Shown piece by piece: positions 11,265-64,000 of a stretch of 64,000 nucleotides of DNA. Below the pieces are notes generated by a model that made no database searches, had not been told where the DNA came from, and saw nothing but the letters and a program-made list of their open reading frames with translations. A program made the translations under genes and the position numbers. Source of the stretch: an uncultured delta proteobacterium (lineage in GTDB: Bacteria > Desulfobacterota > WTBG01). The stretch is taken from positions 288,001 through 352,000 of the forward strand of contig CAWCBP010000008.1 in NCBI GenBank assembly GCA_963793865.1. Direction: 5' to 3'. The stretch's first letter is position 1; every line of letters starts with the position of its first letter.

Positions 11265-12331
11265 TTTATGTAATGTTTTTTGTTGCGAGTAGTTCATATG
11301 CCGCGCAAATCACGAATTGATGTACCCGGAGCAATTCATCACATAATAATAAGAGGTATAGAAAGGAAAAGAATATTTCAGGATAACCTTGATAGAAACA
11401 ATTTCCTTGATCGGATGGGAAGTATATGCACCGGGTTGAATGTTATCTGCTATGCATGGGCCTTGATGCCCAATCATGTACACCTTTTGTTGAGAAGTGG
11501 TACGGCACCCATACCTACTGTCATGAGACGACTTCTCACCGGTTATGCGGTAACCTATAACCATCGCCACAAACGGCACGGTCATTTATTTCAGAACCGA
11601 TACAAGTCGATTCTTTGTCAAGAAGACACCTACCTGCTAGAATTAGCGCGATACATACACTTAAATCCGCTCAGAACAGCTGCGGTATCGGACATAGAGA
11701 GTTTAGATCATTATCCTTATTCCGGCCATAGCGTTATCATGGGGAAGAGAAAAAACGATTGGCAGGAAATCGGTTACATCCTTGGCCATTTTGGATCAGT
11801 TACTTCCCAAGCGCGCAAGCGCTATAGAGCATATATTCAAGATGGCATAGCAAGGGGCAGGCGGGCAGATCTGACAGGAGGGGGGTTAATACGGAGCCTG
11901 GGCGGGTGGTCTGAGGCCAGCCTGAGACAAGGTCAGGGGGACCGCATTAAGGCAGATGAACGTATTTTGGGGAATGGTGATTTTGTTGAGGAAGTGCTGC
12001 GAAGATCAGAAGAAAGATTAGAGCGAAAGTATCAGTTACAAGCGCGCGGTATTGATCTTGAAAGTCTTGCCAGAAGAGTTGCTTTGCTCTTTGGTATTGA
12101 GCCTGAAAAGATATATGCGCCGGGGAAGTATAAACAGCGCGTTGATGCTCGCAGTCTTTTTTGTTATTGGGCAGTGCGGGAGCTTGACTTTCGTACAACC
12201 GAGCTTGCTAAAAAGCTTAGGCTTTCGCAACCGGGGGTAAGTATCTCGGTAAAGAGAGGGGAAAAAATAGCGAGAGAAAAAGGAATTCAGTTTTCAATTG
12301 ATTAGAAATTTATAATTTTATGGACGTCCCC
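11238..12331 (+). mobile_element. TIR-flanked HUH tyrosine transposase element
   Basis: Perfect 25-bp inverted repeats GGGGACGTCCATAAAATTATAAATT at 11238-11262 and 12307-12331; AT-richer than flanks; no target-site duplication seen. Confidence 0.85.
11298..12305 (+). CDS. REP-associated (RAYT/Y1) tyrosine transposase with C-terminal HTH
   Basis: MPRKSR...HHIIIRG, HUH motif PNHVHLL, GHLFQNRYKS, catalytic RYIHLNP, and a C-terminal DnaA-C-like HTH. Confidence 0.92.
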   Translation: MPRKSRIDVPGAIHHIIIRGIERKRIFQDNLDRNNFLDRMGSICTGLNVICYAWALMPNHVHLLLRSGTAPIPTVMRRLLTGYAVTYNHRHKRHGHLFQNRYKSILCQEDTYLLELARYIHLNPLRTAAVSDIESLDHYPYSGHSVIMGKRKNDWQEIGYILGHFGSVTSQARKRYRAYIQDGIARGRRADLTGGGLIRSLGGWSEASLRQGQGDRIKADERILGNGDFVEEVLRRSEERLERKYQLQARGIDLESLARRVALLFGIEPEKIYAPGKYKQRVDARSLFCYWAVRELDFRTTELAKKLRLSQPGVSISVKRGEKIAREKGIQFSID

Positions 12332-14218: not shown

Positions 14219-15724
14219 TCAGGTGCCCCTGCTTAAGCTCATCAGGCGCTCGCCGATCTTGGTTTTGAAAGTGGGAAAGGCGATGCGCAGGGTCAGAAGG
14301 AGCCTGCGGTTAAATCCCGTGAACATGAGGTAGAAGTAGGAGAAGGGCTCGATGAGCGTGACGATACAAGCGTGCATGACGGTAAGGGCTAGCCGGGCGA
14401 GGGCCGATTTCCGGTGTCGGATGAAATAATCAACCATCCCGGAGGGGATGAGCGGGGAGATCCTGACCAGCTTGTTTAAAAAAGTGGGTCTGTAGCTGAA
14501 GTAGTTTTGTATGGGAAGGTCGGTGCCGGCGCCCATCTTTTTTTGCATCATGCCGTAGATATCGGTTCCCTTGTAAAAGGTGAGGGTAAAGAGCTGCAGC
14601 TGGAAGGGCTTGGGTATTTCCTTCAGCACCTTGATGGTGCTGATCACATCTTCTTCTTCTTCAAAGGGGTTGTCGAGAATAACGTCATAATAGCCGCTGA
14701 CGCCATACTTCTTCGCCAGCTCCGTTGCCTCCAGGAATTTCTTATTCGATACGTGCCGGCAGTACACCTCCCTGTTGATCCGCTCGCTTCCCGACTGCAG
14801 GCCCATGGTCACCCAGGCGAGGCCGGCCTCCTTCAGCATCCGTATCTTGTCTTCGGTGAGGTGCAGCGGGGTGGACCTGACGATGAAGGGCCGGTCGATC
14901 CATTTTTTATAGTCCTTTACAAATTCCCGGTGCCATTCCTCGCGGTGGGCGAGAAAGCAGTCGTCGTGGATGTTGATCAGGATGATGTCCGGAAACGCCT
15001 CGACGGCGGTGCTCAGTTCCGCTATCACGTTCTGGGGGCTTCTGGCGCGGATGCTTTTGGTCCCGTAGAGTTTGGAAAGAAAGGAGTTGCAGCAGTAGGA
15101 GCAGGAGAATGGGCAGCCCCGGGAGGAAATGATGTTGTATGCCTTACCGTCGTACCGGGTGTACCTTCTGAAGAGCTTCAGGTCCATGGGCAGGATGTTT
15201 CCCCGGTGATAGACATGGGAATGCTCCGGGAAATGGGTGGGGAAGGGAAGCCTGTCCAGATCGGTAATGAGAGGCCTCAAAGGGTTTTTCCGCACCGTGT
15301 GCCCATCTTTAAAGGCGAGGTTTTGTATCTCCTTCAGGCTTTTGCCGTCCGCCACATGGTTCAGCGTTTCCAGAACGGTGCCCTCGCTCTCCCCGATGGA
15401 CACCATGTCGGCGTATTCCAGGCACTCCTCCGGCGCCACGGTGGGATGTATGCCCCCGACCATAAGCGGTATCCGGGGGGCGTGCTCTTTGATCTGCCTG
15501 CCGAGATAGGCTGCGAAGGGCGCTTCGTAGCTCATCATGCCGCAGCCGATGAGGTCCGGACGAAATGAATCAATGAAGGCCTTCAGGGGCGGTATGACCG
15601 CGTCTTCATGACGCGGGATAAAAAGGATGTCGGACTGATGTCCCTGCTGCAGCAGATAGGAATGGAGGTATTTTATGCCGAAATTTTCGGTGGTGGGCAG
15701 AAGTGAAATGAGCAGTATCTTCAT
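14219..15724 (-). CDS. B12-binding radical SAM protein
   Basis: VGGIHPT, SRGCPFSCSYC (CxxxCxxC), HDDCF, GLQSGS. Confidence 0.93.
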   Translation of the reverse strand: MKILLISLLPTTENFGIKYLHSYLLQQGHQSDILFIPRHEDAVIPPLKAFIDSFRPDLIGCGMMSYEAPFAAYLGRQIKEHAPRIPLMVGGIHPTVAPEECLEYADMVSIGESEGTVLETLNHVADGKSLKEIQNLAFKDGHTVRKNPLRPLITDLDRLPFPTHFPEHSHVYHRGNILPMDLKLFRRYTRYDGKAYNIISSRGCPFSCSYCCNSFLSKLYGTKSIRARSPQNVIAELSTAVEAFPDIILINIHDDCFLAHREEWHREFVKDYKKWIDRPFIVRSTPLHLTEDKIRMLKEAGLAWVTMGLQSGSERINREVYCRHVSNKKFLEATELAKKYGVSGYYDVILDNPFEEEEDVISTIKVLKEIPKPFQLQLFTLTFYKGTDIYGMMQKKMGAGTDLPIQNYFSYRPTFLNKLVRISPLIPSGMVDYFIRHRKSALARLALTVMHACIVTLIEPFSYFYLMFTGFNRRLLLTLRIAFPTFKTKIGERLMSLSRGT

Positions 15725-17268
15725 GGCAGCGACTTTGCGGCGGGTGCTTTCTTGTCGGAGGCGCGCGTGATGCTGAAAAGTTTTTTTAACATTCTCCGCG
15801 TCTTTCTGAGGATGAAAATCTTATAGCGCATCTTGAACTGGAAGGCGTCGACATCAAACTCCTTGTGCCGGTCGAGCACCCGGGCGATGCTATGGGTGAA
15901 CATACCCAGGTTGGGCATGATGCGGTAAAACCGGATGCTGATCAGGAAGCGGTTCAGCCATGCGGGAAGCACCGGGATCAGCGTCAGGAAGCCCTGTATC
16001 CTGGCGAAGTTCAGCTTTCTGATGGTGCCGCCCTGGATAAAGGAGCGGGCATTAAGGCCCCGGTTTATTTCCTCCACGTCTTTATCGGTGAGGATGCCCT
16101 CTTCAAGCGCACTCTCGATGATCTTTGTCTTCGGGTAGTACCGGATGAAGTAGAGGCTTAAGCGGTTGGGCCGGGTCTGGTTGTAGAAGTTGAGCATATG
16201 CACCAGGTCATCCTCCGTCTGGGTGGGAAGACCGAGCATGTTTTCGCAGATGGTGAGTATCCCGGCGCCCTTGAGCAGCTCGATGCTCCTTTGCACCTGC
16301 CGATTGGTTTCCCTGCGGTTGAGCACCTTTTTCTTGAGCTCCTCGTCCAGGGACTGGACGCCCATGATGGCCTGCCAGCAGTTCCCCTCCTTGAGTAGCG
16401 CGACGGTCTCCTCGTCGATGAAATTGACGTGTATGCAGCAGGTGAAGGGCACCCCGATCTCTTTTTTATAGCCCCGGAGAAAATGGGCGAGCCACTCCTT
16501 GTCGCTTATGAATATCTCGTCCCAGAAGTGAACGGTGCTGTAGGGATATTGTCTGCGGGCCTCAATCAGTTCCTCGAGTACGCGGTCGGCGCCCCTTCGC
16601 CGGAAGAACGGTCCCTTGCCGCGGTAGATGGTGTCCTTGTAAAGGGAGTTGTTGCAGAAACTGCACTTGTTGACGCATCCCCGGCTGGTGATGGTGATAT
16701 AGCCCTCCCGCAGGTAGGGAAGCTTGTTTAAAAAGATCTCCTTGTCCGGGAGGGGAAGCGCGTCAAGGTCCTGCAGCAGGGGCCGCACCTCATTTTGTAT
16801 GACCTCGCTACCGTTCTTCGCCCAGACATTTTGAATGTTTCGGCAGGCGGCAGGATCCTTGATGCTGTTTACCAGCTCAACCAGCGCATCTTCGCCTTCA
16901 CCTATAACCAGGTAGTCTACGGAGGGCTGCATGATGACGTATTCCGGCACCGACGTCGGATGAACCCCTCCGAATACGATGGGCACATCCAATGCTTTTT
17001 TTATTTTGTCGGCGAGCGCGATCGCCCAGGGGTAATTGTCCGACACCACCGAGAAGGCAATCAGGTCGGGGGCGTATGCCCTCAGCTCCCCGATGATTTC
17101 ATCGGAATAGTCAAAGAACCGTTTGAGCATCCTGTTTTTGAGGAAGGTGTCATCAAAAAGCTGGGGATCAAAGCACAGCGAACACCGGTGACCGGCTTTT
17201 TTGAGGACGGCCGACAGGTACTCTATGGCGAGCGTTTCACAAGCTGAAGATATGAAGACGACGTGCAT
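15721..17268 (-). CDS. B12-binding radical SAM protein
   Basis: FGGVHPT, GEGE, SRGCVNKCSFC, WDEIF, GVQS; overlaps the next gene by 4 nt. Confidence 0.93.
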   Translation of the reverse strand: MHVVFISSACETLAIEYLSAVLKKAGHRCSLCFDPQLFDDTFLKNRMLKRFFDYSDEIIGELRAYAPDLIAFSVVSDNYPWAIALADKIKKALDVPIVFGGVHPTSVPEYVIMQPSVDYLVIGEGEDALVELVNSIKDPAACRNIQNVWAKNGSEVIQNEVRPLLQDLDALPLPDKEIFLNKLPYLREGYITITSRGCVNKCSFCNNSLYKDTIYRGKGPFFRRRGADRVLEELIEARRQYPYSTVHFWDEIFISDKEWLAHFLRGYKKEIGVPFTCCIHVNFIDEETVALLKEGNCWQAIMGVQSLDEELKKKVLNRRETNRQVQRSIELLKGAGILTICENMLGLPTQTEDDLVHMLNFYNQTRPNRLSLYFIRYYPKTKIIESALEEGILTDKDVEEINRGLNARSFIQGGTIRKLNFARIQGFLTLIPVLPAWLNRFLISIRFYRIMPNLGMFTHSIARVLDRHKEFDVDAFQFKMRYKIFILRKTRRMLKKLFSITRASDKKAPAAKSLP

Positions 17269-17484
17269 AAGGGAGCTGATCAGTAGGTTGTTACACAGGT
17301 AAAGCCCTTAGATTTTAAATCAGAAATCCGAAACAAATCCAAAATTCAAATTCCGAATGTTCCAAACCCTGGCTACCTGTAATTTGTTTGTTTGCTTTTT
17401 TTGAATTTAGGTCATTTTCGGATTTCGTGCTTCGGATTTATAGGGAACGCTATAAGAACTTCTGGTATGTTTTAACTGCCCGAG

Positions 17485-18939
17485 TCAGGTTAACCTCTTC
17501 TTAATATATCCTCCCATTGCATACTTGGCCACGTAAAACCCCGCCTTGACCGTATCGACAATGTTCCGGGGATTGGTGAACAGTAATTTCATCACGTAGC
17601 GCAGAAAGGTCCGGGGGCGCAGGTAAAATTTCCGGTACATGCGCCGGTGGGCCTCGATGAGCTGCTCTTTGGTCATGCCGGCGGGGATGAAGACCGGGTC
17701 CCAGAACCCGAGCTTTCTCCAGTCCCGCTCGAAGGCGCCGTAGCGCTGCGCGGTGTCGAAAAGCTCGGCGCCGGGCATGGGGGTGCAGAAAGTGACGTGG
17801 AAATCCTTGAGCCCGCTCTCCCGGGTAAAGCGGGTGGTTTTCTCCAGGGACTCCGCGGTTTCTCCCGGGCAGCCGATCATGAAGTAGCCGCGGGAATGGA
17901 TGCCCGCCTCGTTGGTCTTGCGGATCACCTCGGACAGCCTTTCCAGTGTCACCCTTTTTTTTATGTTGTCAAGTATGCCCTGGTCTCCGCTTTCCACGCC
18001 AAAGGCGATCTGCCAGCATCCCGCCTTTTTGATCAGCCCGAAAAGATCCACCGAGGTTACTTCAGGCCTGGCAAGGCAGGACCAGCTGATGGTATAATCT
18101 TTTTTGAGCAGCGCTTCGCAGATTGCCGTCACCCGCTTTTTATCAAGCAGGAAATTGTCGTCGTAGAACATGATGTCCTTGATTCCGTACACTTTGACCA
18201 GGTGGTCCACCATGCCGACCGTATACTCGGCGCTGTGCGCCCGGTATTTTTCCCCCATAAAGGGCCGCGCGCAAAAGGTGCAGGTGCCGTTGCACCCCCG
18301 CGAACTCATCAGGGATGAGGAAGGAAGCCGCCGGTAGCTGTGCGGCGAAGGCTTGTAATGCTTTGCCAGGTCGGGCAGGAGATCCCAGGCGGGAAAAGGA
18401 AGCGCGTCCAGGTCCTGTATGTTGTCTCTGCGGGGTGAGAGCTTAATCTCCCCTCCCTCCCGGTATACAATGCCGGGGATGGAACGGAGGCCGCTTCCCG
18501 CTTTGAGCGCGGCAAGGATATCGCAAACCGTGTATTCGCCCTCGTTGATTACCCCCATGTCAAATTCGGGACACTCTTCCAGCGTCTCACGGGGCAGCGA
18601 GGAAACGTGGGGCCCGCCGAGGATCAGGGGGGCCGGTATCCCGCTTTGCCTGATGGCCTTTGCCAGCTCGAGGGCCCGGTTCAGGGACACGGTAGAGGCG
18701 GTGATGCCGATGGCATCGGCGCCGGCACGGGTTATTTCCGCAACCGTTCGGGCGAGATCAAGAGAAAGCGCGGGGGCGTCAACGATACTGACCGTGTAGC
18801 CCTGCTTCCGGGCGGATGATGCCAGGTAGCAGAGGCCGAGGGGCGGCGCCTGGCTTCCCACGGATGCAAAGCTTCCATAGCGCTCCTCCAGTGTAATGGG
18901 CGGATTAACCAGCAAGAGATCATGCTTCATGATCGACAT
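17485..18939 (-). CDS. B12-binding radical SAM protein (class B methyltransferase-like)
   Basis: PPLGLCYLA, GGPHVS, SRGCNGTCTFC, YDDNF, GVESG, FMIGCPGET. Confidence 0.94.
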   Translation of the reverse strand: MSIMKHDLLLVNPPITLEERYGSFASVGSQAPPLGLCYLASSARKQGYTVSIVDAPALSLDLARTVAEITRAGADAIGITASTVSLNRALELAKAIRQSGIPAPLILGGPHVSSLPRETLEECPEFDMGVINEGEYTVCDILAALKAGSGLRSIPGIVYREGGEIKLSPRRDNIQDLDALPFPAWDLLPDLAKHYKPSPHSYRRLPSSSLMSSRGCNGTCTFCARPFMGEKYRAHSAEYTVGMVDHLVKVYGIKDIMFYDDNFLLDKKRVTAICEALLKKDYTISWSCLARPEVTSVDLFGLIKKAGCWQIAFGVESGDQGILDNIKKRVTLERLSEVIRKTNEAGIHSRGYFMIGCPGETAESLEKTTRFTRESGLKDFHVTFCTPMPGAELFDTAQRYGAFERDWRKLGFWDPVFIPAGMTKEQLIEAHRRMYRKFYLRPRTFLRYVMKLLFTNPRNIVDTVKAGFYVAKYAMGGYIKKRLT

Positions 18940-19626: not shown

Positions 19627-19717
19627 GTGCACTAATCGAAAGGGCAAACCCCGGGCAACCGGGGGACGCAAAGCTACGATCCCCTCAGGGGAAGTCGGGT
19701 TGCTGAAATTAGCGCAC
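19627..19717 (+). ncRNA. c-di-GMP-I (GEMM-I) riboswitch aptamer
   Basis: AGGGCAAACC-CCGG-GCAA-CCGG-GGGACGCAAAGC...GGGTTGCTGAA, closed by P1 GTGCACTAAT/ATTAGCGCAC. Confidence 0.93.
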
Positions 19718-47176: not shown

Positions 47177-47775
47177 CGAGGGTAGGGTTGAGATAATTTT
47201 TTGTCATCCTGCGACTTGATCGCAGGATCCAATAAAAAAAACTGGATTCTGCGGTCGAGCCGCAGAATGACCCGGTAGGAGCGGCTTCAGCCGCGAAGGA
47301 CATACCTGTCTTGAATGGACGCGCTCAGTCGCGTCCTCTTATTTTATGCGGCCACGACGAAGCGTGGCCCTCCATTGATCCACATTATTATTCTCTCGGC
47401 CTTTTTAACCTGCGGTAGGAGCGGCTTCAGCCGCGAAGTATGTTGCCTGGCCTGTCACACCGAATGAGCCTCACCCTTATCCTCCTCCCTCCTTCAGCCT
47501 ACTCCTTCTGCCTCCTCCTTCAGCCTCCCCTGCCTGTCATTTCGAAGGAGCTTTGGCGACTGAGAAATCTTAAAAATGCCCGAGGCAGGCCTGCTACTAG
47601 GTTTTTGACCGGCAACTACTTATTTTGCATGATGATTTTTTTGAGTCGCTGACATAATTTAGCTTGACTAAATTTTTTATGAAATATAGTATTAATCGAT
47701 TTTTTTAAAATATACTTTTAAATCCGACAGGTCATTTTAAAACCGAAACATTAATTGAGAAAGAGGAGGGTGGTT

Positions 47776-49478
47776 ATGCTGAAGAAACTATCAATTTTAT
47801 GTGCAGTCATGTTTGCTTTTGGGCTGATGGCAGGCTCTGTTTATGCCCAGAGCTACTGCCAGGATGTTTTGGAGGCAGGGAATCCCGGCGGCATTACAAC
47901 CGGTCTTAAGACATGTGATACAGTTAATCCGGTAACGCTTAATCCAGGTGATACATTTTCCATTGACATCTGGGCAGCCGATATACCTGAGTCAATTATC
48001 TCCAGTGGATTTGAGATGCTTTACAATCCGGCCCAGGTAAGTCTCGTAAGCGTTCAGGCTTATGATGGTGTTGACATAGCCGGTCCTTGGGATGGAACAG
48101 CTACCCTTAAGATACCTGATGCTTATGGACCCGGTTCCTATGTACTGGCATTGGTACAGTTAGGTACCTGCCCGGTACCTGATGCCGGTGGTGACGTTAT
48201 CATAGCCAAGGTAACCTTCCAGTGCCTCGCAAATGGTAGCGGTGACATTTCTGTCAAAGGAATAACCGATTTTGATACAACGGTAGGGTGCACCAGCGGT
48301 ATAGTATACGATGCTACAATGGGCACCAATACACTTAATGTCACCATAGAAGCAGAAGGGTGTACTGTTGATGCAGAATGTGAAGACACACTATATTGCA
48401 ATGGCGCTGAAACATGCAATACCGTTACCGGACTCTGTGAGCCCGGCACGCCACCAAGCTGTGATGATGGGGTAGCTTGTACTACTGATGCATGCACTGA
48501 GGGTATAGACGAATACATCTGTACCCACACACCCATTAGATACAGTGTGTGACGATGGTCTCTACTGTAACGGAATCGAGACCTGTGATGTAGCGGCTGG
48601 TTGCCTGCCCGGCACACCGGTTTTCTGTCAGGATGATGGCCTTTTCTGCAACGGTGAAGAAATTTGCGATGATGTGCAGGACATTGTGTCATCCTGGAAA
48701 TCCCTGTTCTTCAGCCGGAGCCTGTGATGAGGAAACCAATACATGCATTTGCATATTATCAATAGATCCACCTTCAGCTAACGTGCAATTCCAGGGTACA
48801 ATTCAGTTCAATGCTGTTGCCAGCGAAGAGTGTGCTGCACCCAGCTATACGTGGGAAATTTCTGCAGGACGGTTGTACGGGAGAAACAACGGGAAGTGCT
48901 ATTGGCGGTGCCATCAATGCTAATGGTCTTTACACAGCAGGTGATACCGAAGGTACAGACCTTATCAGAGTAATCGATGTGAATAATGATAATATCTGTG
49001 CCACCGCTGAAGTGAATGTTTCCGCAAGCACAACCACAACAACCTCCGTCAGGCCGACGACAACAACCTCAACACCTACCACGACCACAACCGTTGAGCC
49101 GACGACCACGACTACCACAATCGGGCCGACGACCACGACCACCTCTATCCCCGGGGTAGTGCCAGCATCGACCTGAGGCCGGATTCAGTGTTCCAGTCGA
49201 GATGGTTCTTCTTGCCGCGGTTTTTAAGAATTGAGGGAACTAATACCAATTTTGTGCGCCGTCAAACAGCGGTGGCCTTCCAGCCAGCCAACGCAATATT
49301 GAAGTTTCGTCCTGTTGTGTTGGATAGTGATACTATCGTGATGTTGGTCATCATTATGCCAAGGTGGCTGACCGGGGAGGTTGACAGTGTTGAGGTGACG
49401 GCAATCACGGGGTCCGAATCGGCATCCGGTGAACTGGGTATTGAGTTACTCCCCTTCTTCCTGGAAGAAAAGCAGTGA
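47776..49478 (+). CDS. Secreted protein: cohesin-like A, Cys repeats, Ig-like, Thr linker, C-terminal 'SRW' domain (about 4 frameshifts)
   Basis: GAGGAGG then MLKKL signal; pieces 47755, 48545, 48633, 48811 and 49188 are colinear; tail is paralogous to the tail of 50985. Confidence 0.75.
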
Positions 49479-49546
49479 GGAATGGAGTGCGGAAGAAGTC
49501 ACCGGTAAAACCCGTGATTTTATAAATTTGTAAATAAAACAAAACG

Positions 49547-49590
49547 ATAACCACGAAGATGTTAAAAAAAGCATCTTCGTGGTTATTTGT
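49547..49590 (+). terminator. Intrinsic terminator-like hairpin
   Basis: ATAACCACGAAGATG/CATCTTCGTGGTTAT, a 15-bp stem. Confidence 0.7.
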
Positions 49591-49685
49591 TAGATATAAT
49601 TAAAGTACAAAGCGTTTAAATACGATATATAATTGAAAAAAAGCCGCTCTAAACCATTTTTAAACCTGTTTCAAGGAGGAGGTAC

Positions 49686-50804
49686 ATGAAAAGAAACAAA
49701 ACGCTGCTATGCCTGTTAATCATGACATTTTTTATGGGTAGCTTCCTGTTGGTCCCGTATCTGAATGCGGAGGAGCCCAAGATCAATGTTACCATAACCC
49801 CAAAGTCAGAAGCAAAAACACCGAAGGCAGAAACTCCTAAAGCTGTAAGCACAAAGGGCAAAACATCAGGAGAGAATCAGCCCGTCATATCTATCGATGC
49901 GAGGCTATATGACGCCGGAGAAGTATGGGAAGGGGATATGGTAACACACAGCTTTATTGTTAAAAATACGGGAAAAGGTGAGCTGAACATTGCCAATGTC
50001 AAGCCCGGGTGAGGCTGCACCGTAGCCGATTTTGACAAGGCTATCGCCCCCGGTCGGGAAGGCAAAATAACATTAAAGCTCAATACAAGCAGAAGGCAGG
50101 GCAAGCTCACAAAAACAGCTGTGGTCACCTCAAATGATCCGAACACGCCAAGTACCAGCGTAACGCTGGCCTGTTTCATAAAAGAACATATCAGCATTAA
50201 ACCCAACAACCGGTTTAACCTTACGGGGTATGAAGGCGACGAGTTGAGTCAAAAACTGACCATTACCGCGACAGAAGGCCAGGAGTTTGACATAAAGGAA
50301 GTAAAGACAGATCTGACGGATAAGATCAAATATAAGCTGGAAACTGTCCAAAAGGGGAAAGAATACACTCTGGAAGTTACGAGCCTTACCCGGAAAGAAA
50401 GTTTCGTTCGTGGGCAGATAGAGATCAGTACCACCAGCCAGAAGAAACCCCTCATAGTCCTACCGGTCTTTGTTAAGATCCAAAGCGAAGTCGAGGTGAA
50501 GCCAGCTTCCCTCTACTTCGGCAAAATCGATACAGCCGGCGGGCCGGTCAATCCTGAGATCCTTACCAAGTCCGTGGTGATTAAAATGGCCCGGGGGAAG
50601 GAGCTGGGCATCAAGAAGGTCAGTGGAAGCAGCAACTGGATTAAAACAGAGACGAAAACGGATGAAAAGGGCGTCCAGTATACTGTGGCTATTACTCTCA
50701 ACAAGGATAAAATGCCCAGGGGGAAATTTGACGAAAAAGTTGAAATAAAGACCAACAAGAAGGACGAGCCGTTAATAGTAAGCATTAAAGGTGAAGTCAT
50801 GTAG
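49686..50804 (+). CDS. Exported DUF1573-like Ig-domain protein, probable selenoprotein (UGA 50010-50012; 372 aa)
   Basis: ORFs 49686-50012 and 50121-50804 are in one frame; readthrough gives NVKPG-U-GCTVADFDKAIAPGREGKI, matching the family CGCT motif. Confidence 0.88.
50022..50044 (+). promoter_or_regulatory. Putative bacterial SECIS hairpin
   Basis: GTAGCC-GATTTTGACAA-GGCTAT begins 9 nt after the UGA; conserved in the paralogue. Confidence 0.7.
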
Positions 50805-50984
50805 GCTGGGAAGCAAAAACATATCAAAGATTTCTCGCTTCGCTTCGAAATGACAGAATAAAGAGCTCAGCATGACCCCGGTAGGAGCGGCATCAGCCGC
50901 GAATAATATTCACTGCTTGTCATTTCGAAGGAACGTGCGTGACTGAGAAATCTTTCATTTGCGAATTTTAAAAAAGGAGCATTA

Positions 50985-52154
50985 ATGATCAGCAGAAAAA
51001 CCAGAATGCCGTTAATGAGTTTGTTTGCAGCTTTGAGCCTTGCAACCCTGTTCCTTGCATCAACCGTGTGCGCGCAAGTGACGCTGACCGTTGGAAAGGG
51101 TTCCGCGCTGCCGGGGGCAACTGAAAGCGCTGTGCCGGTGAGCCTGGACAACCCCGGTAATAATATAGCCAGCGGGATGGAAATGACTATCTGTGATGCC
51201 AATAATTTTCTTGAATGTACCGGGTGTGAAACAACGGAGCGCACCACAGAATTTTCCTGTTTATTCAATGAATTAGGGGATGAACCGGATCCGCTAAAAG
51301 CCGGTTGCTGTAAGGTGGTACTCTTCAGCGTAAGCAGCGCAGACATTGAAACAGGTACCGGCCCCATATTCACTCTTTTGAATACCGTCAATAGCAGCGC
51401 GAGCGGTCAGACGTGCAAAGAATTGAGGATACTGGATGACGTGAAGATCGCAGATGCTTCCGGCCCGCAGATAATCCCGGAGCTGCAGCCAGGCGGGTTC
51501 TGCTTCCCCTGCAGCTCTGACGCAGATTGCGATGACGGGTTATATTGTACCGGTGAGGAAAGTTGTACAGGCGATGCCTGTGTGCCTGGTACGAATCCCT
51601 GCGCGGAAGGAACCGCTTGTGTCGAAGGCGCTGATGATTATGAGTGTGTTACGCCATCGACCACCACCACCGCAGGGCCATCGAGCACTACGACAACGGG
51701 GCCATCCACCACTACCACCACCACAGATTCAACGACCACTACCACCGGGCCATCCACCACAACCACGACGGTCTCCGGCGACGCGAGCATAGAGGTGATT
51801 TCGGATAATATTTGGAAATCCCGCTGGGTGGCGTTGCCGAAACTGCTGGTCATCGAAGGAAGCGGAACCAGCTTTCAGCCCTTTAAGACAACCGTTGCCT
51901 ATGATCCGCGGGATGCGGTGCTTAAACTGTTTCCCATAGTGCTGGGTGATAATTATATCTGGAACCTGATTCTGGTTATGCCCGGCTGGTTTGCGGGAAC
52001 AGGGGACCAGGAGGTGACGGTTACGGTCACCACGGGAGATGAAATCGTCAGCGATGATTTTCTGATACAGGAGCTTCCCTTTAAGCTTGATCGGAAGATA
52101 AAGCCCGTTAAAAGAAGGTTAATTCCCCCTCGAACCCCAGTCCGGGTCAGCTAG
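50985..52154 (+). CDS. Secreted protein: cohesin-like B, Cys repeat, Thr linker, C-terminal 'SRW' domain
   Basis: Signal ...VCA-QVTLTVGKGS; MEMTICD..N.L.C..C.TT.RT..FSC..NEL; tail KSRWVALPKLLVIEG...QELPF. Confidence 0.85.
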   Translation: MISRKTRMPLMSLFAALSLATLFLASTVCAQVTLTVGKGSALPGATESAVPVSLDNPGNNIASGMEMTICDANNFLECTGCETTERTTEFSCLFNELGDEPDPLKAGCCKVVLFSVSSADIETGTGPIFTLLNTVNSSASGQTCKELRILDDVKIADASGPQIIPELQPGGFCFPCSSDADCDDGLYCTGEESCTGDACVPGTNPCAEGTACVEGADDYECVTPSTTTTAGPSSTTTTGPSTTTTTTDSTTTTTGPSTTTTTVSGDASIEVISDNIWKSRWVALPKLLVIEGSGTSFQPFKTTVAYDPRDAVLKLFPIVLGDNYIWNLILVMPGWFAGTGDQEVTVTVTTGDEIVSDDFLIQELPFKLDRKIKPVKRRLIPPRTPVRVS

Positions 52155-56740: not shown

Positions 56741-57766
56741 TTAGAGTACTTTGCCCTCGACGATAATAGTTGCCGCGACGGTCTTGCCCTGGCACTGCGT
56801 CTGAACGGTTACCGTTTCCCTGAATTTCTCTTTGGGTAATTTGTCCTTATTCAGCGAGATGGTGATGGTGTACTGTTTTCCCGCCTGATCGGCTTTTACC
56901 TCTGCCGTAATCCACTCCTTGCTTGTCTCGATCTTGTTAATACTCAGATCTTCCGACTGCAGATGGCTGATGACGGTGGTTCTCTTGAGGCTCGATGCGT
57001 CGAAGTTTTCCTTGCCGGTATCGATAACGCCGAAATAAAGATATTCGGGGGTGACCTTTATCTCTTTTTTCAGGTTTCCCAGGACCGATATCGAAACCTC
57101 GGGCTTCTTCTTTGATTCCGTCTTGAGCGCGATTCTTCCCCGGAAGGTATCTTTAATGCCGCCCCGCGTCTTAATCCCAAGGGTGTATTCCTTGTCCTTC
57201 TTCTCATTTTTCAGGGTGTATTCTATTTTATCGTCGATGTTTGAAGAAACCCCGGTTATGTTGAGAGGCTCATCAGTATTGGTGGTAATGCGCAGAACCT
57301 GTTCCAAACTGTCCCCGTAAAATCCGCTGAACATCACCCGGGGGGCCGGCTCTACGCTGATGAAGGGTTTTATCGTACCCCCGATGGAAACCGTGACCTT
57401 GGGCTGTTCGGGATCGTTTGAAAAAATAATCGCGCTCTGTCTTGTCGCTCCCATTTTGCCGGGTGTGCTGATTCTCAGGGTTACTTTGCCCTCCTGACCA
57501 GGAGGAATAGCCTTATCAAAATCGGCTACCGTGCACCCTCACCCCGGTTTGACATTGGTAATGTCGAGCTGGGCCGTGCCGGTATTCCTGATGGTGAAGG
57601 TGTGAATGATATCCTCACCCTCCCATAGCTCTCCGGCGTCATAGTCAGGGGCATCGATGGTGAGCCGGGGCTGGTCTCCTCCCTGCGCGAAGAGGCAGTG
57701 AACAGTAGAAAAGGTAAAGAGCAGGCAAAGCATGGTCAGAAACAGGTTTTTTTTCATAAACAACAT
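56741..57766 (-). CDS. Exported DUF1573-like Ig-domain protein, probable selenoprotein (UGA 57541-57539)
   Basis: ORFs 57539-57805 and 56741-57454 are in one frame; readthrough gives NVKPG-U-GCTVADFDKAIPPGQEGKV; has a signal peptide. Confidence 0.88.
57507..57529 (-). promoter_or_regulatory. Putative bacterial SECIS hairpin
   Basis: GTAGCC-GATTTTGATAA-GGCTAT, 9 nt after the UGA; 22/23 identical to 50022-50044. Confidence 0.7.
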
Positions 57767-57933: not shown

Positions 57934-59169
57934 CTAGTAGTCGAATGTGAATTTCGTGGGTCCCATCTTGCCATCGTATACGGTCGAGCTGTTCCCCACG
58001 CTGGTGTCAAAATTCGGGACGGGGGCAATAGTGAATTCGCAGTTTCCTGTGCAGGTGCCGTAGAGCCGTGCAATGTTAATGGTGTCGTTTTGATCAGGTG
58101 CAACGCTGCCCAAATTACCCACAATAACCATATAGGTGCCGGGCCCCGAGGGGTTCGGGACTTTATTGGTCATGTCACTGTCCCAGGGTCCGCTCAAAGA
58201 AGAGCCGTCATAGACATCGGCACCGGTGATATTCATTTGAGATGGATCGTACTGGATCATGAAGCCGCTGGTAATAAGTTTTTCCGGTACATCTGATAAC
58301 CGGATGTCGACTTCCATTTGGTTGCCTGATCCCTCGTTTATGGCCCCGGCGGTATCTATTGCAAAACGGGGGGCACCTTCTATGGTCTGTTCCTGTTGAT
58401 TACCGCCGCTGCCGGGGAGGTTGTTTTCCTCTTCCATATTTGCATACAGGTCGGTGAGCGCGCTTTCCGCCGCCCTGCTCACCGCGGGATTGGGATCCTC
58501 AAGGGCCGATGTCAGCGGTCCCAGCGCGCCGTCACCCATTCTGGCCAAACCCTGCACCGCATTTACCTTGGCCGCTTCATCTCCCTCCTGCAGATCCTTT
58601 GACCATTCTTTCAGCGATTTAACGGTGTTTTCCCTGGGGGGCGTTTTTAAAACCTGTTTGTTTTCAGCCGGTTTGTTTTCGGCTTTATCGGTGCCGGCAG
58701 GATTTTGAGCGGACTTGCTGGCGCTTATGATCAAAGGTTTTTCAGATGACCCGCCTTTATTCTGTTCCTGAATATAAATCCTGACCTCCCTCAATGTGCC
58801 GGTTCCGGATCCCTTGTTCGCATCTGCCTGGTCATAAATGAAGACACGGTTATAGGAGGCCAGAACCTTATCTATTCCCTGATCAATGCCGAAGTTTGCA
58901 AATCGCACCATCAGCCTGTTCTGGCAAATAGAGGGCGGCAGGGAAAAGCTTATGCCGGTCTGGTCCGCAAGCTTTCGCAACACCTCTTCCAGAGGCGCGT
59001 CCTTGATATCTACCGACAACAGGTTATTTTCCAGCTTTGCGGTAAGAGAACCCATTGACAAGGCTGATTTCACCTCAGGTTTTCCCTGGCTCAAGCTGCA
59101 GAACCCTGCGGCAGATGAAAAAACAACAATCGTTATCACGCAGGCTATAAATAGTCTTTTCATGGGCAC
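57934..59169 (-). CDS. Exported STN/secretin-N0-like + HEAT + cohesin-like A protein
   Basis: LSVDIKDAPLEEVLRKLADQTGI; ALEDPNPAVSRAAESAL; DVPEKLITSGF..YDP...YDG...GPWD...NLG...PNFDT. Confidence 0.75.
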   Translation of the reverse strand: MPMKRLFIACVITIVVFSSAAGFCSLSQGKPEVKSALSMGSLTAKLENNLLSVDIKDAPLEEVLRKLADQTGISFSLPPSICQNRLMVRFANFGIDQGIDKVLASYNRVFIYDQADANKGSGTGTLREVRIYIQEQNKGGSSEKPLIISASKSAQNPAGTDKAENKPAENKQVLKTPPRENTVKSLKEWSKDLQEGDEAAKVNAVQGLARMGDGALGPLTSALEDPNPAVSRAAESALTDLYANMEEENNLPGSGGNQQEQTIEGAPRFAIDTAGAINEGSGNQMEVDIRLSDVPEKLITSGFMIQYDPSQMNITGADVYDGSSLSGPWDSDMTNKVPNPSGPGTYMVIVGNLGSVAPDQNDTINIARLYGTCTGNCEFTIAPVPNFDTSVGNSSTVYDGKMGPTKFTFDY

Positions 59170-59491: not shown

Positions 59492-61816
59492 TTAATAAGT
59501 GCACCACGGATCTGTTGCACAACTTGGGCAGCTGATACTGTATGAACTCCTGCCGAAATCCGCTTTAAAAAGTGCCGCGTCAGATCCATCAACATTCCCG
59601 TTGCAGCTAAAATCACCGTTGCAAAGAGCAACGGCGGTACAGGGGTTCTTGTATGAACTCCTGCCGAAATCCGCCTTAAAAACTGCCGCATCTGATCCAT
59701 CCTGGTCCAGGTCACCATCGAAGTTGCCCTCGCACTCGCAGGCATTACCGCAACCATTGCCGGCAGGAGGATAACTGTCGTCCTGATTGGGATCAAAAGT
59801 AGCGGGGCAAACATCACCGGCACAGACATTATCCCCGTCGGCCGTATCCGTACAGCTGTCACATGCATCGCCGGTCAAATCCTCGTCCGCATCTTCCTGG
59901 TTCATGCTGCAGAATCCGCCTGTCCCGCACTCGCTGGTGTTGTTTCCCGGAATGTTGCAGGGATCCCCGATATTGCTGCCGGCGGTGCAGGTGCCGCCGC
60001 TGGGCCCATTCTGGATGGCCGGGCAATTGTCACGATAATCGATGACCCCGTCATTGTCGGTGTCATCTTCAGCAAAGGCGCTTCCGAAGGAATATATTTT
60101 CCCGTTGGTGGAAGAATAGTAGACATGCCCGTCCGCCAGGGCGGGAGAAGGAACCGAATACCAGGCCACCACGTAGGGATCATGGCCCCTCACGATGAAT
60201 TCATTAGCCTGGATACTGCAGTTGTCATCCTTGCAGAACTGGTACTCCCACACGGGGGTCAGCGTGTTCGGGTCAGTAACGTAATCGTAGCAGAAGAGTT
60301 TCTCTCTCCCGTAGGTGTTTGAATTGATCCAGGCACGGTCATAGTCGGTGGCGGCCACATAGAGCAGGCCGTCCTGTGGAGAAATGGATATGCCGCTCGG
60401 CCCGGGCAGCCAATAGCCGGAAACAGGATGAGGATCGCCGACATTCCAGGTCGGCACACCCAGAAATGCTTCTTTAATGATCCGGCCCGTATCCTTGTTG
60501 AGCACAAACATGCGCCCGGTATCGGCTATGCCGATCACATACCCCCGGGATTCATCAACCGCAGGCGCTGAACAGAGGGCGGTATGACCCCTTACATTGA
60601 AGCCCGCATGGTATCCCCACTGCACCTGGCCGGTATCCACGTTCAGTGCCCAGAGGGCGCCGTCACCGCCGGGAGCATAAATAGTGTTGCCCGAAATGGC
60701 CTGGGTTCCTCCCTGAGCCAGTGGAATAGTTCCATGATGCCAGAGCTCGGCCCCGGTGTCTGCGTCAACCGTGCCAAACTGCCCGTAGTGATAATCGGTG
60801 GCGGTGTCCGCCTCGATGAAAACCTTGCCGTTCTGTACCGGCGGTATGTTGGTTACCCCGCATCCCCGCGGATTCCAGGTCCATAGGACCGAACCATTAT
60901 CTTCGTCTAATCCGTAAAAGTATCCGTCACGACCGGCCCAGTAGTTGGTGGCATCATTGCCGATGGTGGGCCAGGGATATCCCGGCTGCCCTTCAGTCAC
61001 ATAGGCCCAGGGCCGGAATATGGCATAAAAGCTGGGAAGGAATGACCCGATGTAGAGCTTGCCGTTGGAAATGGAGGGCGGGGAAAGATGCCAGGCCCAC
61101 TTCTGGTTATACCAGGGTTTCCCTACGTTCGGTCCCCCCGGGTCTTTGTAGGGTGTCCTCTCCCAGATGGTCGAGCCGTCATTCATGTTAAGCGAGATGA
61201 CCCGCCCGTCAAAGGTCCCGAAAATGACGCAGCCGTTGGTGCCGTAATTGGGGTCCATGGTGGGCCCGGTGATGAACTGGTCGTAACCGGCAGGAAAAGG
61301 AAGCGGGGCGATGAGAGAAAAATCAGTGCAGTCCGGCTGGGTGGTGGTGCACTCAAAACACCAGGAAGGACAAGTGCCGGTGGTATAGCACACCCCGGTG
61401 TTTCCCTCCAGCATGGGAATGTCATTGTAACACCAGTCGGTGGGGGCTCCGGCCGGTTCGGTGGGCGCCTGCCAGAGAAAGTGTTGGTGCCAGAGCAGGC
61501 CGCCGGTAAACTGATCGTTGGCTTGGATTACCCCGGAACCCGCCGTGATTATCATTCCCCGGTCCACCACCGAGGGACCCCTGGAATCGGCGCGAGTTGT
61601 GGGAGCCCAGGCGCGAAATTCGCGGTCTTGCATCCACAGCTTGGCTGCGGTGGCTGGATAGCCGCTGTCCGTTGCCGCGCCGCTGTTCAATAAATCATGC
61701 CTGAAGCTCGGCCAGGGATCTGCCGTCGGTCCCACAGCCAGACCCGTTCCCTGGATGCTGCACATTACAAAAATGATGAGAGGGAGAAAATACGCGAACA
61801 CTGTTTTCTTGCTCAT
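59492..61816 (-). CDS. Secreted PQQ-type/BamB-like beta-propeller protein with TSP3 and dockerin-like I tail
   Basis: WPSFRHD..NSG; repeated DG...A...tG...W blades; tail ECEGNFDGDLDQDGSDA...CNGDFSCNGNVDGSDA. Confidence 0.85.
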   Translation of the reverse strand: MSKKTVFAYFLPLIIFVMCSIQGTGLAVGPTADPWPSFRHDLLNSGAATDSGYPATAAKLWMQDREFRAWAPTTRADSRGPSVVDRGMIITAGSGVIQANDQFTGGLLWHQHFLWQAPTEPAGAPTDWCYNDIPMLEGNTGVCYTTGTCPSWCFECTTTQPDCTDFSLIAPLPFPAGYDQFITGPTMDPNYGTNGCVIFGTFDGRVISLNMNDGSTIWERTPYKDPGGPNVGKPWYNQKWAWHLSPPSISNGKLYIGSFLPSFYAIFRPWAYVTEGQPGYPWPTIGNDATNYWAGRDGYFYGLDEDNGSVLWTWNPRGCGVTNIPPVQNGKVFIEADTATDYHYGQFGTVDADTGAELWHHGTIPLAQGGTQAISGNTIYAPGGDGALWALNVDTGQVQWGYHAGFNVRGHTALCSAPAVDESRGYVIGIADTGRMFVLNKDTGRIIKEAFLGVPTWNVGDPHPVSGYWLPGPSGISISPQDGLLYVAATDYDRAWINSNTYGREKLFCYDYVTDPNTLTPVWEYQFCKDDNCSIQANEFIVRGHDPYVVAWYSVPSPALADGHVYYSSTNGKIYSFGSAFAEDDTDNDGVIDYRDNCPAIQNGPSGGTCTAGSNIGDPCNIPGNNTSECGTGGFCSMNQEDADEDLTGDACDSCTDTADGDNVCAGDVCPATFDPNQDDSYPPAGNGCGNACECEGNFDGDLDQDGSDAAVFKADFGRSSYKNPCTAVALCNGDFSCNGNVDGSDAALFKADFGRSSYSISCPSCATDPWCTY

Positions 61817-61890: not shown

Positions 61891-62448
61891 TCAATGAAAT
61901 CCGTCGGCAAAGTAGTCCAGCAGTTCAATCACCTCCGGATTTTTAGGATCAAGCGCAACTGCTTTATTAAGGCTCAGCAGGGCATTGCGCGTAGAACCTA
62001 TTTTTATGAATGCCCTTGCCAGCAGAATATGCGTATCAAGGTCGTCCGGATTGACAGTCAGATGAGCCGTCAGATAGCGCATGGCTACTTCGGTTTTTCC
62101 CTGATCCGAATAATGGGCTACCTTTTCCATGATACCCTGTTTGATGGTTGGCAACGCTGCCGTCTCGTCTTGATTGAGGGAAATGGATTTTTTAAATTCT
62201 CCAATTGCCTCCTTCAGGGATTCCTTTTTAAGGTAGGCAAGGCCCAGCTTGAGGTGCGCATCAGCATCATCAGATTTGTTCTTAAGGTATACATTGAAAT
62301 TCTCTATAGCCGCATCATAATTGCCCTTATCCAGAGCTTCTACCCCAAGCTGGTAGTTTTGAGATACAGTGCCCGCACATCCTGCAAGGAAAATGCAGAG
62401 CACAATAGTTACACAATGTATGGTTTTTCTCATTCGAATTTTGATCAT
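61891..62448 (-). CDS. TPR lipoprotein
   Basis: Lipobox LAGC; TPR motifs AHLKLGLAY and THILLARAF. Confidence 0.8.
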   Translation of the reverse strand: MIKIRMRKTIHCVTIVLCIFLAGCAGTVSQNYQLGVEALDKGNYDAAIENFNVYLKNKSDDADAHLKLGLAYLKKESLKEAIGEFKKSISLNQDETAALPTIKQGIMEKVAHYSDQGKTEVAMRYLTAHLTVNPDDLDTHILLARAFIKIGSTRNALLSLNKAVALDPKNPEVIELLDYFADGFH

Positions 62449-62596: not shown

Positions 62597-64000
62597 TTAC
62601 GGATAAGGGTCGCCGAAGCAGTATATTTTCCCATTGGTGGAGGAGTAGTAGACATGTCCGTCCGCCAGGGCGGGAGAAGGAACAGAATACCAGGCCACCA
62701 CGTAGGGATCATGGCCCCTCACTATGAACTCGTTGGCCTGGGTGCTGCAGTTGTCATCCTTGCAGAACTGGTACTCCCATACCGGGACCAGGGTGTCCGG
62801 ATCCGAGACATAATCGTAGCAGAAGAGTTTCTCTCTCCCGTAGGTGTTTGAATCTATCCAGGCACGGTCATAGTCGGTGGCGGCCACATAGAGCAGGCCG
62901 TCCTGGGGAGAAATGGATATGCCGCTCGGCCCGGGCAGCCAGTAACCAGAAACCGGGTGCGGATCGAACACATTCCAGGTGGGCACTCCCAGAAATGCCT
63001 CTTTAATGATCCGGCCCGTATCCTTGTTGAGCACAAACATGCTCCCGGTGTCGGCTATGCCGATCACATACCCCCGGGATTCATCAACCGCAGGCGCTGA
63101 ACAGAGGGCGGTATGACCCTTTACATTGAAGCCGGCCCAATGGGTCCACTTCACCTGGCCGTCATCGATGTCCAGTGCCCAGAGGGCGCCGTCACCGCCG
63201 GGAGCAAAGAGGGTGTCACCTGAGATTGCCTGGGTTCCTCCCTGGGCAAGCGGAATAGTTCCATGATGCCAGAGCTCAGCCCCGGTGTCTGCATCTACCG
63301 TGGCAAACTGCCCGTAGTGGTAATCGGTGGCGGTGTCCGCCTCGATGAAAACCTTGCCGTTCTGTACCGGCGGTATGTTGGTTACCCCGCATCCCCGCGG
63401 GTTCCAGGTCCACAGGACATCACCATTATCTTCATCCAATCCGTAAAAGTACCCGTCACGACCGGCCCAGTAATGGGTAGCGTCATTGCCGATGGTGGGC
63501 CAGGGATATCCCGGCTGCCCTTCAGTCACATAGGCCCAGGGCCGGAATATGGCATAAAAGCTGGGAAGGAATGACCCGATGTAGAGCTTGCCGTTGGAAA
63601 TGGAGGGCGGAGAAAGATGCCAGGCCCACTTCTGGTTATACCAGGGTTTCCCTACGTTCGGTCCCCCCGGGTCTTTGTAGGGTGTCCTCTCCCAGATGGT
63701 CGAGCCGTCATTCATGTTAAGCGAGATGACCCGCCCGTCAAAGGTCCCGAAAATGACGCAGCCGTTGGTGCCGTAATTGGGGTCCATGGTGGGCCCGGTG
63801 ATGAACTGGTCGTAACCGGCAGGAAAAGGAAGCGGGGCGATGAGAGAAAAATCAGTGCAGTCCGGCTGGGTGGTGGTGCACTCAAAACACCAGGAAGGAC
63901 AAGTGCCGGTGGTATAGCACACCCCGGTGTTTCCCTCCAGCATGGGAATGTCATTGTAACACCAGTCGGTGGGGGCTCCGGCCGGTTCGGTGGGCGCCTG
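62597..64000 (-). CDS. Second PQQ-type beta-propeller paralogue without dockerin tail (5'-truncated by window edge)
   Basis: Near-identical to 60085-61471 (offset 2529 nt) but ends GKIYCFGDPYP*. Confidence 0.88.
   Translation of the reverse strand, partial: QAPTEPAGAPTDWCYNDIPMLEGNTGVCYTTGTCPSWCFECTTTQPDCTDFSLIAPLPFPAGYDQFITGPTMDPNYGTNGCVIFGTFDGRVISLNMNDGSTIWERTPYKDPGGPNVGKPWYNQKWAWHLSPPSISNGKLYIGSFLPSFYAIFRPWAYVTEGQPGYPWPTIGNDATHYWAGRDGYFYGLDEDNGDVLWTWNPRGCGVTNIPPVQNGKVFIEADTATDYHYGQFATVDADTGAELWHHGTIPLAQGGTQAISGDTLFAPGGDGALWALDIDDGQVKWTHWAGFNVKGHTALCSAPAVDESRGYVIGIADTGSMFVLNKDTGRIIKEAFLGVPTWNVFDPHPVSGYWLPGPSGISISPQDGLLYVAATDYDRAWIDSNTYGREKLFCYDYVSDPDTLVPVWEYQFCKDDNCSTQANEFIVRGHDPYVVAWYSVPSPALADGHVYYSSTNGKIYCFGDPYP

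Follow-up and report, generated by a model that had tools for sequence, protein, structure and literature searches.

An OS_HP2 selenoprotein gene of the DUF1573 family in an uncultured deltaproteobacterium, with two hairpins downstream of its in-frame UGA

Background

A canonical bacterial SECIS is that of E. coli fdhF, in which the 11-nt spacing matters. The bacterial SECIS rules set out in the Fig. 2 legend of PMC13188914 give an apical loop of 3-9 nt that has a G within its initial two positions, a distance of 16-37 nt from the UGA to the apical loop and a minimum free energy (MFE) of −7.5 kcal/mol or lower. Among selenoprotein families, OS_HP2 was first reported by Zhang & Gladyshev in 2007 as a new family with two members from the Olavius symbiont metagenome (PMC1976440), and its entry in the GOS study reads OS_HP2, pfam07610, UxC, with 354 Cys homologues (PMC2398784). 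Neither catalogue entry gives a SECIS drawing or a function for the family, and Figure 5 of PMC1976440 is devoted to five families other than OS_HP2.

Here we examine a window of 64,000 nucleotides, meaning the whole stretch of DNA that was analysed, from contig CAWCBP010000008.1 of an uncultured delta proteobacterium. The product of the gene at 49686-50804 scores 115.1 bits against NF041425, "OS_HP2 family (seleno)protein", for which the curated cut-off is 100. An earlier note on this DNA, made from the letters alone, had suspected that Sec forms of the family were already catalogued, and both the NF041425 match and the OS_HP2/pfam07610/UxC entry (PMC2398784) bear this out. With family, motif and Pfam domain all published and a curated model available from NCBI, the gene does not represent a new kind but belongs to a selenoprotein family listed since 2007.

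Results

We observe that the gene occupies positions 49686-50804 of the forward strand, with 372 codons including Sec109 and a TAG stop at 50802-50804, and direct reading of the sequence places a Shine-Dalgarno-like AGGAGGAGG (49674-49682, forward strand) ahead of the ATG at 49686. Under translation table 11 this frame is broken into an ORF of 108 aa and another of 227 aa. The sole in-frame TGA is codon 109 (50010-50012, forward strand); when it is translated as U, residues 106-112 read K-P-G-U-G-C-T and 263 sense codons lie between the TGA and the TAG. The earlier note had placed a single TGA at 50010, at the first Cys of a CGCT motif, with 263 sense codons beyond it, and both claims hold, the second by the translated frame and the first by 20 aligned copies from related loci, of which 18 have U in the motif column and two have C. 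The PF07610 (DUF1573) match crosses the TGA (residues 69-156, E 2.6e-29, 101.5 bits against a cut-off of 26.1), so that termination at this codon would sever a single domain.

The codon is also bridged by metagenome contigs from three DNA runs, belonging to three studies, and from one RNA library. These contigs differ from the window at many places elsewhere, and among the differences listed none falls at 50010-50012; a TGC or TGT in place of the TGA, which the earlier note had said would refute its reading if shown by reads, is absent from these listed differences. The RNA-library contig over the TGA (X16) is no proof of transcription, and uncovered stretches are uninformative. A true stop, whether in a pseudogene or with the 108-residue product made alone, or else a sequencing error, would suit the two separate ORFs under table 11 and the presence, in the same genome, of frameshifted family copies on contigs C2 and C6. 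Against such a stop or error stand the retention of a TGA in the same column across dozens of independent assemblies, the preservation of the downstream frame as protein (72-74% full-length identity within the genus), the extension of one domain over the codon and the independent metagenome contigs that cross it with no listed difference there, and we regard it as highly improbable. The comparative sequence evidence makes it very likely that the TGA at 50010-50012 encodes selenocysteine and that this is a working gene of the catalogued OS_HP2/DUF1573 U-x-C family.

When examining the host genome (14 contigs, 98.6% complete) for selA, selB, selC and selD, as the earlier note had advised, we find all of the machinery, namely a tRNA-Sec (77.4 bits, anticodon TCA) and the proteins SelA, SelB and SelD. 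The SelD gene (C8:451149-451973) has one in-frame TGA of its own and an 8-bp hairpin with a GGA loop, and four molybdopterin-enzyme matches with FdhA-like motifs have one in-frame TGA each (G000:C10:25182-26402, C6:197797-199074, C10:36645-37196 and C1:242379-243446). The FdhA-like genes carry a GUGGCC-GGUCU-GGCCGC hairpin that starts 12 nt past the UGA and has the canonical GGUCU loop. By comparison, UGA-109 would be decoded by Sec-tRNA(Sec) delivered by SelB, and SelB would be recruited by an mRNA structure within the coding region, just downstream of the codon.

Next, we consider how Sec and Cys are distributed across relatives. The family is matched in 34 of 41 related genomes, the host genome included, and among the 60 matches listed for these 41 genomes, 44 have one TGA, 13 have none, two have one TAA and one has several stops. 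A scan of one genome per species with a nine-sequence alignment as query found 79 homologous loci, which are spread over Thermodesulfobacteriota, Krumholzibacteriia/Latescibacterota, Acidobacteriota, Planctomycetota, Verrucomicrobiota, Bacteroidota and others. These loci hold 94 motif instances, 40 of them U-G-C, 54 C-G-C and none C-G-U; since Cys codons were a requirement in one of the two patterns used for the search, the 40:54 ratio of Sec to Cys is no estimate of frequency. The alternation of Cys and TGA among homologues that the earlier note had suggested seeking is thus seen in several phyla, and its placement of Sec at the first Cys of the family C-G-C motif applies to all 40 Sec forms. 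Sec and Cys copies stand side by side in 10 loci. The columns U/C109, G110 and C111 are invariant in an alignment of 19 sequences, and across 96 sequences they are 100% conserved together with N94, G96, G123 and G126, followed by L100, V105, P107, I120, P122, G139, K143, N150, D151, G78 and F90 (at least 89%), with H88 below 70%.

Two hairpins follow the UGA, and they were compared over an alignment of the 57 nt from this codon, which is gap-free in 42 Sec forms. Hairpin A (50022-50044, forward strand), with a 6-bp stem and an 11-nt loop, starts 9 nt after the UGA and is the hairpin that the earlier note had noticed at this distance; the structure is real. It corresponds to columns 13-35 and is variable but covarying among Sec forms, with sequence and register differing between clades. 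Hairpin B (50046-50063, forward strand) has a 3+3-bp stem interrupted by an AA bulge and a GGUC apical loop at 50052-50055, and encodes A-P-G-R-E-G. It corresponds to columns 36-53, with a conserved CCCUCC-NGG(U/G)NN-GGAGGG over P-P-G-x-E-G codons. In the two-hairpin structure 82.1% of cells are paired, a share that drops to 38-56% if the register of the 3' partners is shifted by 1-3 columns, and six of its pairs have changes on both sides.

The 66 nt after the TGA, folded alone, are no better than shuffles (z −0.25); information comes only from setting Sec forms against Cys forms, the control being Cys forms with the same encoded peptide. Without correction for kinship, Sec forms pair 244 of 294 helix-B cells against 157 of 343 in Cys forms, and 204 of 252 helix-A cells against 187 of 294; the mean MFE, likewise without kinship correction, is −9.9 against −5.1 kcal/mol for hairpin B and −7.1 against −4.6 kcal/mol for hairpin A. 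The Cys forms in this comparison are slightly richer in GC (0.63 versus 0.58). In each of the 10 loci that hold both copies, the Sec copy has the more stable hairpin B, and all six pairs of this hairpin form in 26 of 42 Sec forms and in one of 49 Cys forms. Codon usage differs as well, and these counts and those for the 10 loci likewise take no account of kinship: CCT at codon 13, found in 30 of 42 Sec forms, does not rank among the six most frequent codons of the Cys forms at that position, and the loop glycine is GGT or GGG in 41 of 42 Sec forms and GGC in 28 of 49 Cys forms.

Measured against the published rules, hairpin B has a loop of admissible length in all 42 Sec forms, the loop G in 40, a sufficient energy in 39 and these three jointly in 37. 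Its loop lies 37-39 nt past the UGA, and the 16-37 nt spacing is consequently found in just three of the 42; the distance is 38-39 nt in 39 of 42, and 39 nt in the window gene. The latter has the weakest hairpin B of the Sec forms, with an MFE of −7.9 kcal/mol for a 24-nt segment and −6.7 kcal/mol for a 21-nt segment, its hairpin A folding at −7.0 to −7.3 kcal/mol. Rfam gave no SECIS family, either over the whole window at gathering scores or around the TGA at E up to 10. The GGUC loop of hairpin B is present in both window genes of the family and the FdhA-like genes have GGUCU, so the loop matches what the SelB of this organism evidently reads. These patterns point to hairpin B as the probable SelB-binding core of the SECIS. 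Hairpin A would take up 23 nt of the gap, and the unpaired distance from the UGA to the base of B would then be about 10 nt.

The roles could instead be reversed, hairpin A being the SECIS proper and B an accessory or a by-product of the P-P-G-x-E-G codons. The start of A 9 nt after the UGA is near the 12 nt of the FdhA-like genes, a GUGGCC-type 5' arm is common to both, and four of its six pairs have changed on both sides. However, all four published rules are found together for hairpin A in none of the 42 Sec forms (in the window gene its loop, 15 nt from the UGA, is too long at 11 nt), it separates Sec from Cys forms more poorly than B does, and a short form in a related genome (G009) lacks the 5' arm of A yet keeps the TGA and B. 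Moreover, Cys forms with the same peptide rarely form B, as the counts of complete stems above indicate, which speaks against a by-product of the codons. We consider this reversal quite unlikely, and retain hairpin B as the probable core.

Turning to the protein, the product of 49686-50804 is predicted to be exported, a signal peptide and a flexible linker preceding three Ig-like beta-sandwich domains, in agreement with the exported protein with tandem Ig domains that the earlier note had proposed. The signal peptide (49686-49769, forward strand; residues 1-28) has a basic N-end, a hydrophobic core and an LNA/EE cleavage site judged by eye, and it is followed by a Lys/Pro/Thr-rich linker reaching to about residue 65, with pLDDT below 50 for residues 22-61. 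The AlphaFold2 model (mean pLDDT 85.4, pTM 0.66) shows an N-terminal helix at residues 6-20, which is the signal-peptide core, low confidence over 22-61, and three beta-sandwiches. Domain 1, the DUF1573 Ig-like sandwich (49881-50183; residues 66-166), carries U109-G110-C111, with U109-G110 in the turn that joins strands 100-107 and 111-116 of the model; domains 2 (50190-50483; residues 169-266) and 3 (50490-50798; residues 269-371) are modelled as Ig-like sandwiches on the same forward-strand frame, domain 3 with a weak DUF1573 match. Foldseek matches are exclusively tandem Ig proteins of a generic sort (HYDIN-type proteins of cilia, adhesins, cadherins), and a sequence-profile search of the PDB gave one weak match, the uncharacterised protein 2qsv (E 0.0076). 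A thioredoxin-fold oxidoreductase of the DsbA/TlpA type was also considered and does not fit the three modelled beta-sandwiches, the Ig-like Foldseek matches and a motif that is U-x-C and not CxxC/UxxC.

We also examined the genomic surroundings. A terminator-like hairpin with a U-rich tail (49543-49591, forward strand) lies between the upstream gene and the OS_HP2 gene, with an MFE of −27.2 kcal/mol and z −11.66, and 0 of 200 shuffles fold as well. A consensus terminator scan, limited to loops of 3-8 nt, did not list it, and a sigma-70 consensus scan of 49300-51100 found no promoter. Upstream, a gene at 47755-49478 (forward strand) has its cohesin-like, Cys-rich and Thr-rich parts distributed among four or more overlapping frames and resembles an intact downstream paralogue, being either frame-broken or affected by assembly indels; that paralogue, 50985-52154, is a secreted protein with cohesin-like, Cys-rich and Thr-rich regions and a C-terminal domain. 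The next genes encode GT-C/PMT-like glycosyltransferases with TPR repeats. The neighbours of the window gene are not conserved beyond same-genus and same-family loci (L042-L045, L049), and across the 79 homologous loci no neighbour family occurs in more than nine. The earlier note had envisaged a chaperone assisting the Cys-rich subunits, an idea that finds no support here, with the −27.2 kcal/mol hairpin parting the gene from the upstream Cys-rich gene and with synteny restricted to genus and family.

Several other observations concern the same window. The intergenic stretch 50805-50984 contains a repeat, at which the summed metagenome contig depth rises from about 6 to 300-1800 (50788-50875), and which has 57 further short blastn matches across the genome besides the self-hit, with lengths of 26-45 nt among the 24 matches listed. 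A c-di-GMP-I-GGC riboswitch (19634-19708, forward strand; 61 bits, gathering score 59) lies ahead of ORFs with no family match, three B12-binding radical SAM genes stand in tandem at 14219-18939 (reverse strand), and an IS200-like Y1 transposase domain is found at 11280-12305 (forward strand) within a cluster of PMT_2-type glycosyltransferases.

The window contains a second OS_HP2 paralogue on the reverse strand (56741-57757), which shares the K-P-G-U-G-C-T motif, has its TGA at 57539-57541 and scores 117.9 bits against NF041425 (cut-off 100). Its identity is about 42%, and its hairpins A and B lie at about 57490-57530. It is also the last gene of a reverse-strand array with PQQ_2 beta-propellers (62597-63943 and 59492-61816), TPR (61891-62448) and STN/HEAT (57934-59169) genes, the order of which recurs in locus L045. 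Elsewhere in the genome, two more family copies (G000:C2:37324-38110, reverse strand, and G000:C6:5084-5694, forward strand) keep U-G-C and have at least one frame change, being pseudogenes or the result of assembly indels.

A short-form paralogue of 255 aa (G000:C1:314206-314970, equivalent to L131:307-1071, reverse strand) consists of a signal peptide, the motif Q-C-T-A-G-U-G-G and the two distal Ig domains only. It is also present at L133:444-1199 (reverse strand) and L142, the motif across the copies being Q-C-T-A-G-U-G-G/C, and the TGA of the short form is kept in three genera (G000, G009 and G004, the last as a contig-end fragment). All three short forms place a GGUC-loop hairpin 24-34 nt past the UGA, with stems that are different but complementary, and the one in G009 is without the 5' arm of hairpin A. 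The short form scores 25-26 bits on NF041425, where the cut-off is 100, and is therefore not captured by the curated model. Two linked ideas go further. In the first, OS_HP2 genes would use a bridged two-hairpin SECIS, a freely covarying A looping out 23 nt of coding sequence so that B, with its canonical GGUC/GGG loop, could act on the ribosome from 38-39 nt, outside the published range. In the second, the U-G-C turn would be a self-contained extracytoplasmic selenol/thiol redox module, as the short form suggests, in which the rest of the DUF1573 domain is lost while signal peptide, UGA, hairpin B and both distal Ig domains persist. We put these ideas forward as a tentative and rather doubtful proposal.

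Finally, we considered what the site may do. CXC redox motifs such as C-G-C occur in thiol oxidases and PDI mimics. Among the 79 loci, a Redoxin/AhpC-TSA thioredoxin-fold gene lies directly downstream on the same strand in eight (L052, L054, L056, L058, L060, L063, L074 and L099), and DsbD is found nearby, within a few kb, in six (L054 and L059-L063); the L054 copy of the former, the sole one translated, is exported and has a WCGPC motif. The loci bearing Redoxin or DsbD are mostly from related Krumholzibacteriia/Latescibacterota lineages. In the window itself these redox partners are absent, and the nearest thioredoxin-fold gene, 7 kb upstream, encodes a DsbA-like protein that is exported and has the motif CVHC. 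The confinement of Sec to the first Cys (40 of 40) fits an attacking nucleophile that is resolved by C111, and when the TlpA/DsbD neighbours are taken into account as well, a redox site is favoured. An extracytoplasmic thiol/selenol redox site is our best guess for the product, judged from sequence patterns and rated at somewhat less than an even chance; U109 would act as the nucleophile, C111 would resolve it to a selenenylsulfide, and a TlpA-type thioredoxin together with DsbD may service the site in other lineages.

The same neighbours fit equally well if the U/C-G-C site binds a soft metal such as copper and the TlpA/DsbD-type partners only keep it reduced for loading, as happens at the site of Sco-type copper chaperones. 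However, no copper-related family is present among the 24 annotated neighbour clusters (those found in at least three of the 79 loci), and there is no conserved His or Met near the motif, H88 being the poorly conserved position noted above. A metal-binding role thus appears unlikely, and the redox site remains the guess that we prefer.

Discussion

For annotation, these results mean that 49686-50804 should be called as one 372-residue selenoprotein and not as fragments of 108 and 227 aa, and that the paralogue at 56741-57757 (reverse strand) should likewise be called whole, as a selenoprotein. Beyond this, the additions are modest and comprise the two-hairpin SECIS layout, with hairpin B just beyond the published spacing, the short-form paralogue and the association with TlpA-like and DsbD genes. 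The two-hairpin layout and the recurrent TlpA-like/DsbD neighbours offer handles on a family that has so far merely been listed, and which is widespread in anaerobic sediment phyla.

Several described systems can be set beside this gene. The Cys-form DUF1573 proteins (C-G-C-T), for example those of Acidobacteriota, Planctomycetota, Verrucomicrobiota and Bacteroidota, have the fold signature in common with the Sec form, share its invariant N94, G96, G110, C111, G123 and G126, and are frequently found in tandem with a Sec paralogue at one locus; they differ in having Cys for Sec and in P-P-G-x-E-G codons that do not form hairpin B. With the CXC thiol oxidases and PDI mimics the site shares two chalcogen residues with one Gly between them, whereas the fold of OS_HP2 is an Ig-like beta-sandwich and not that of thioredoxin or Erv. 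The canonical bacterial SECIS, as described in the Fig. 2 legend of PMC13188914 and as found in this genome's FdhA-like genes, has in common with hairpin B a hairpin with a G-G/U apical loop, the loop being GGUC in hairpin B and GGUCU in the FdhA-like genes; the canonical spacing is 16-37 nt, whereas that of OS_HP2 is 38-39 nt in 39 of 42 Sec forms, with a second hairpin filling the gap. With the catalogued OS_HP2 proteins, lastly, the gene at 49686-50804 shows no essential difference, as it shares with them the U-G-C at the same column, the DUF1573 domain and an HMM score above the curated cut-off, and its host is likewise of the deltaproteobacterial type (Thermodesulfobacteriota).
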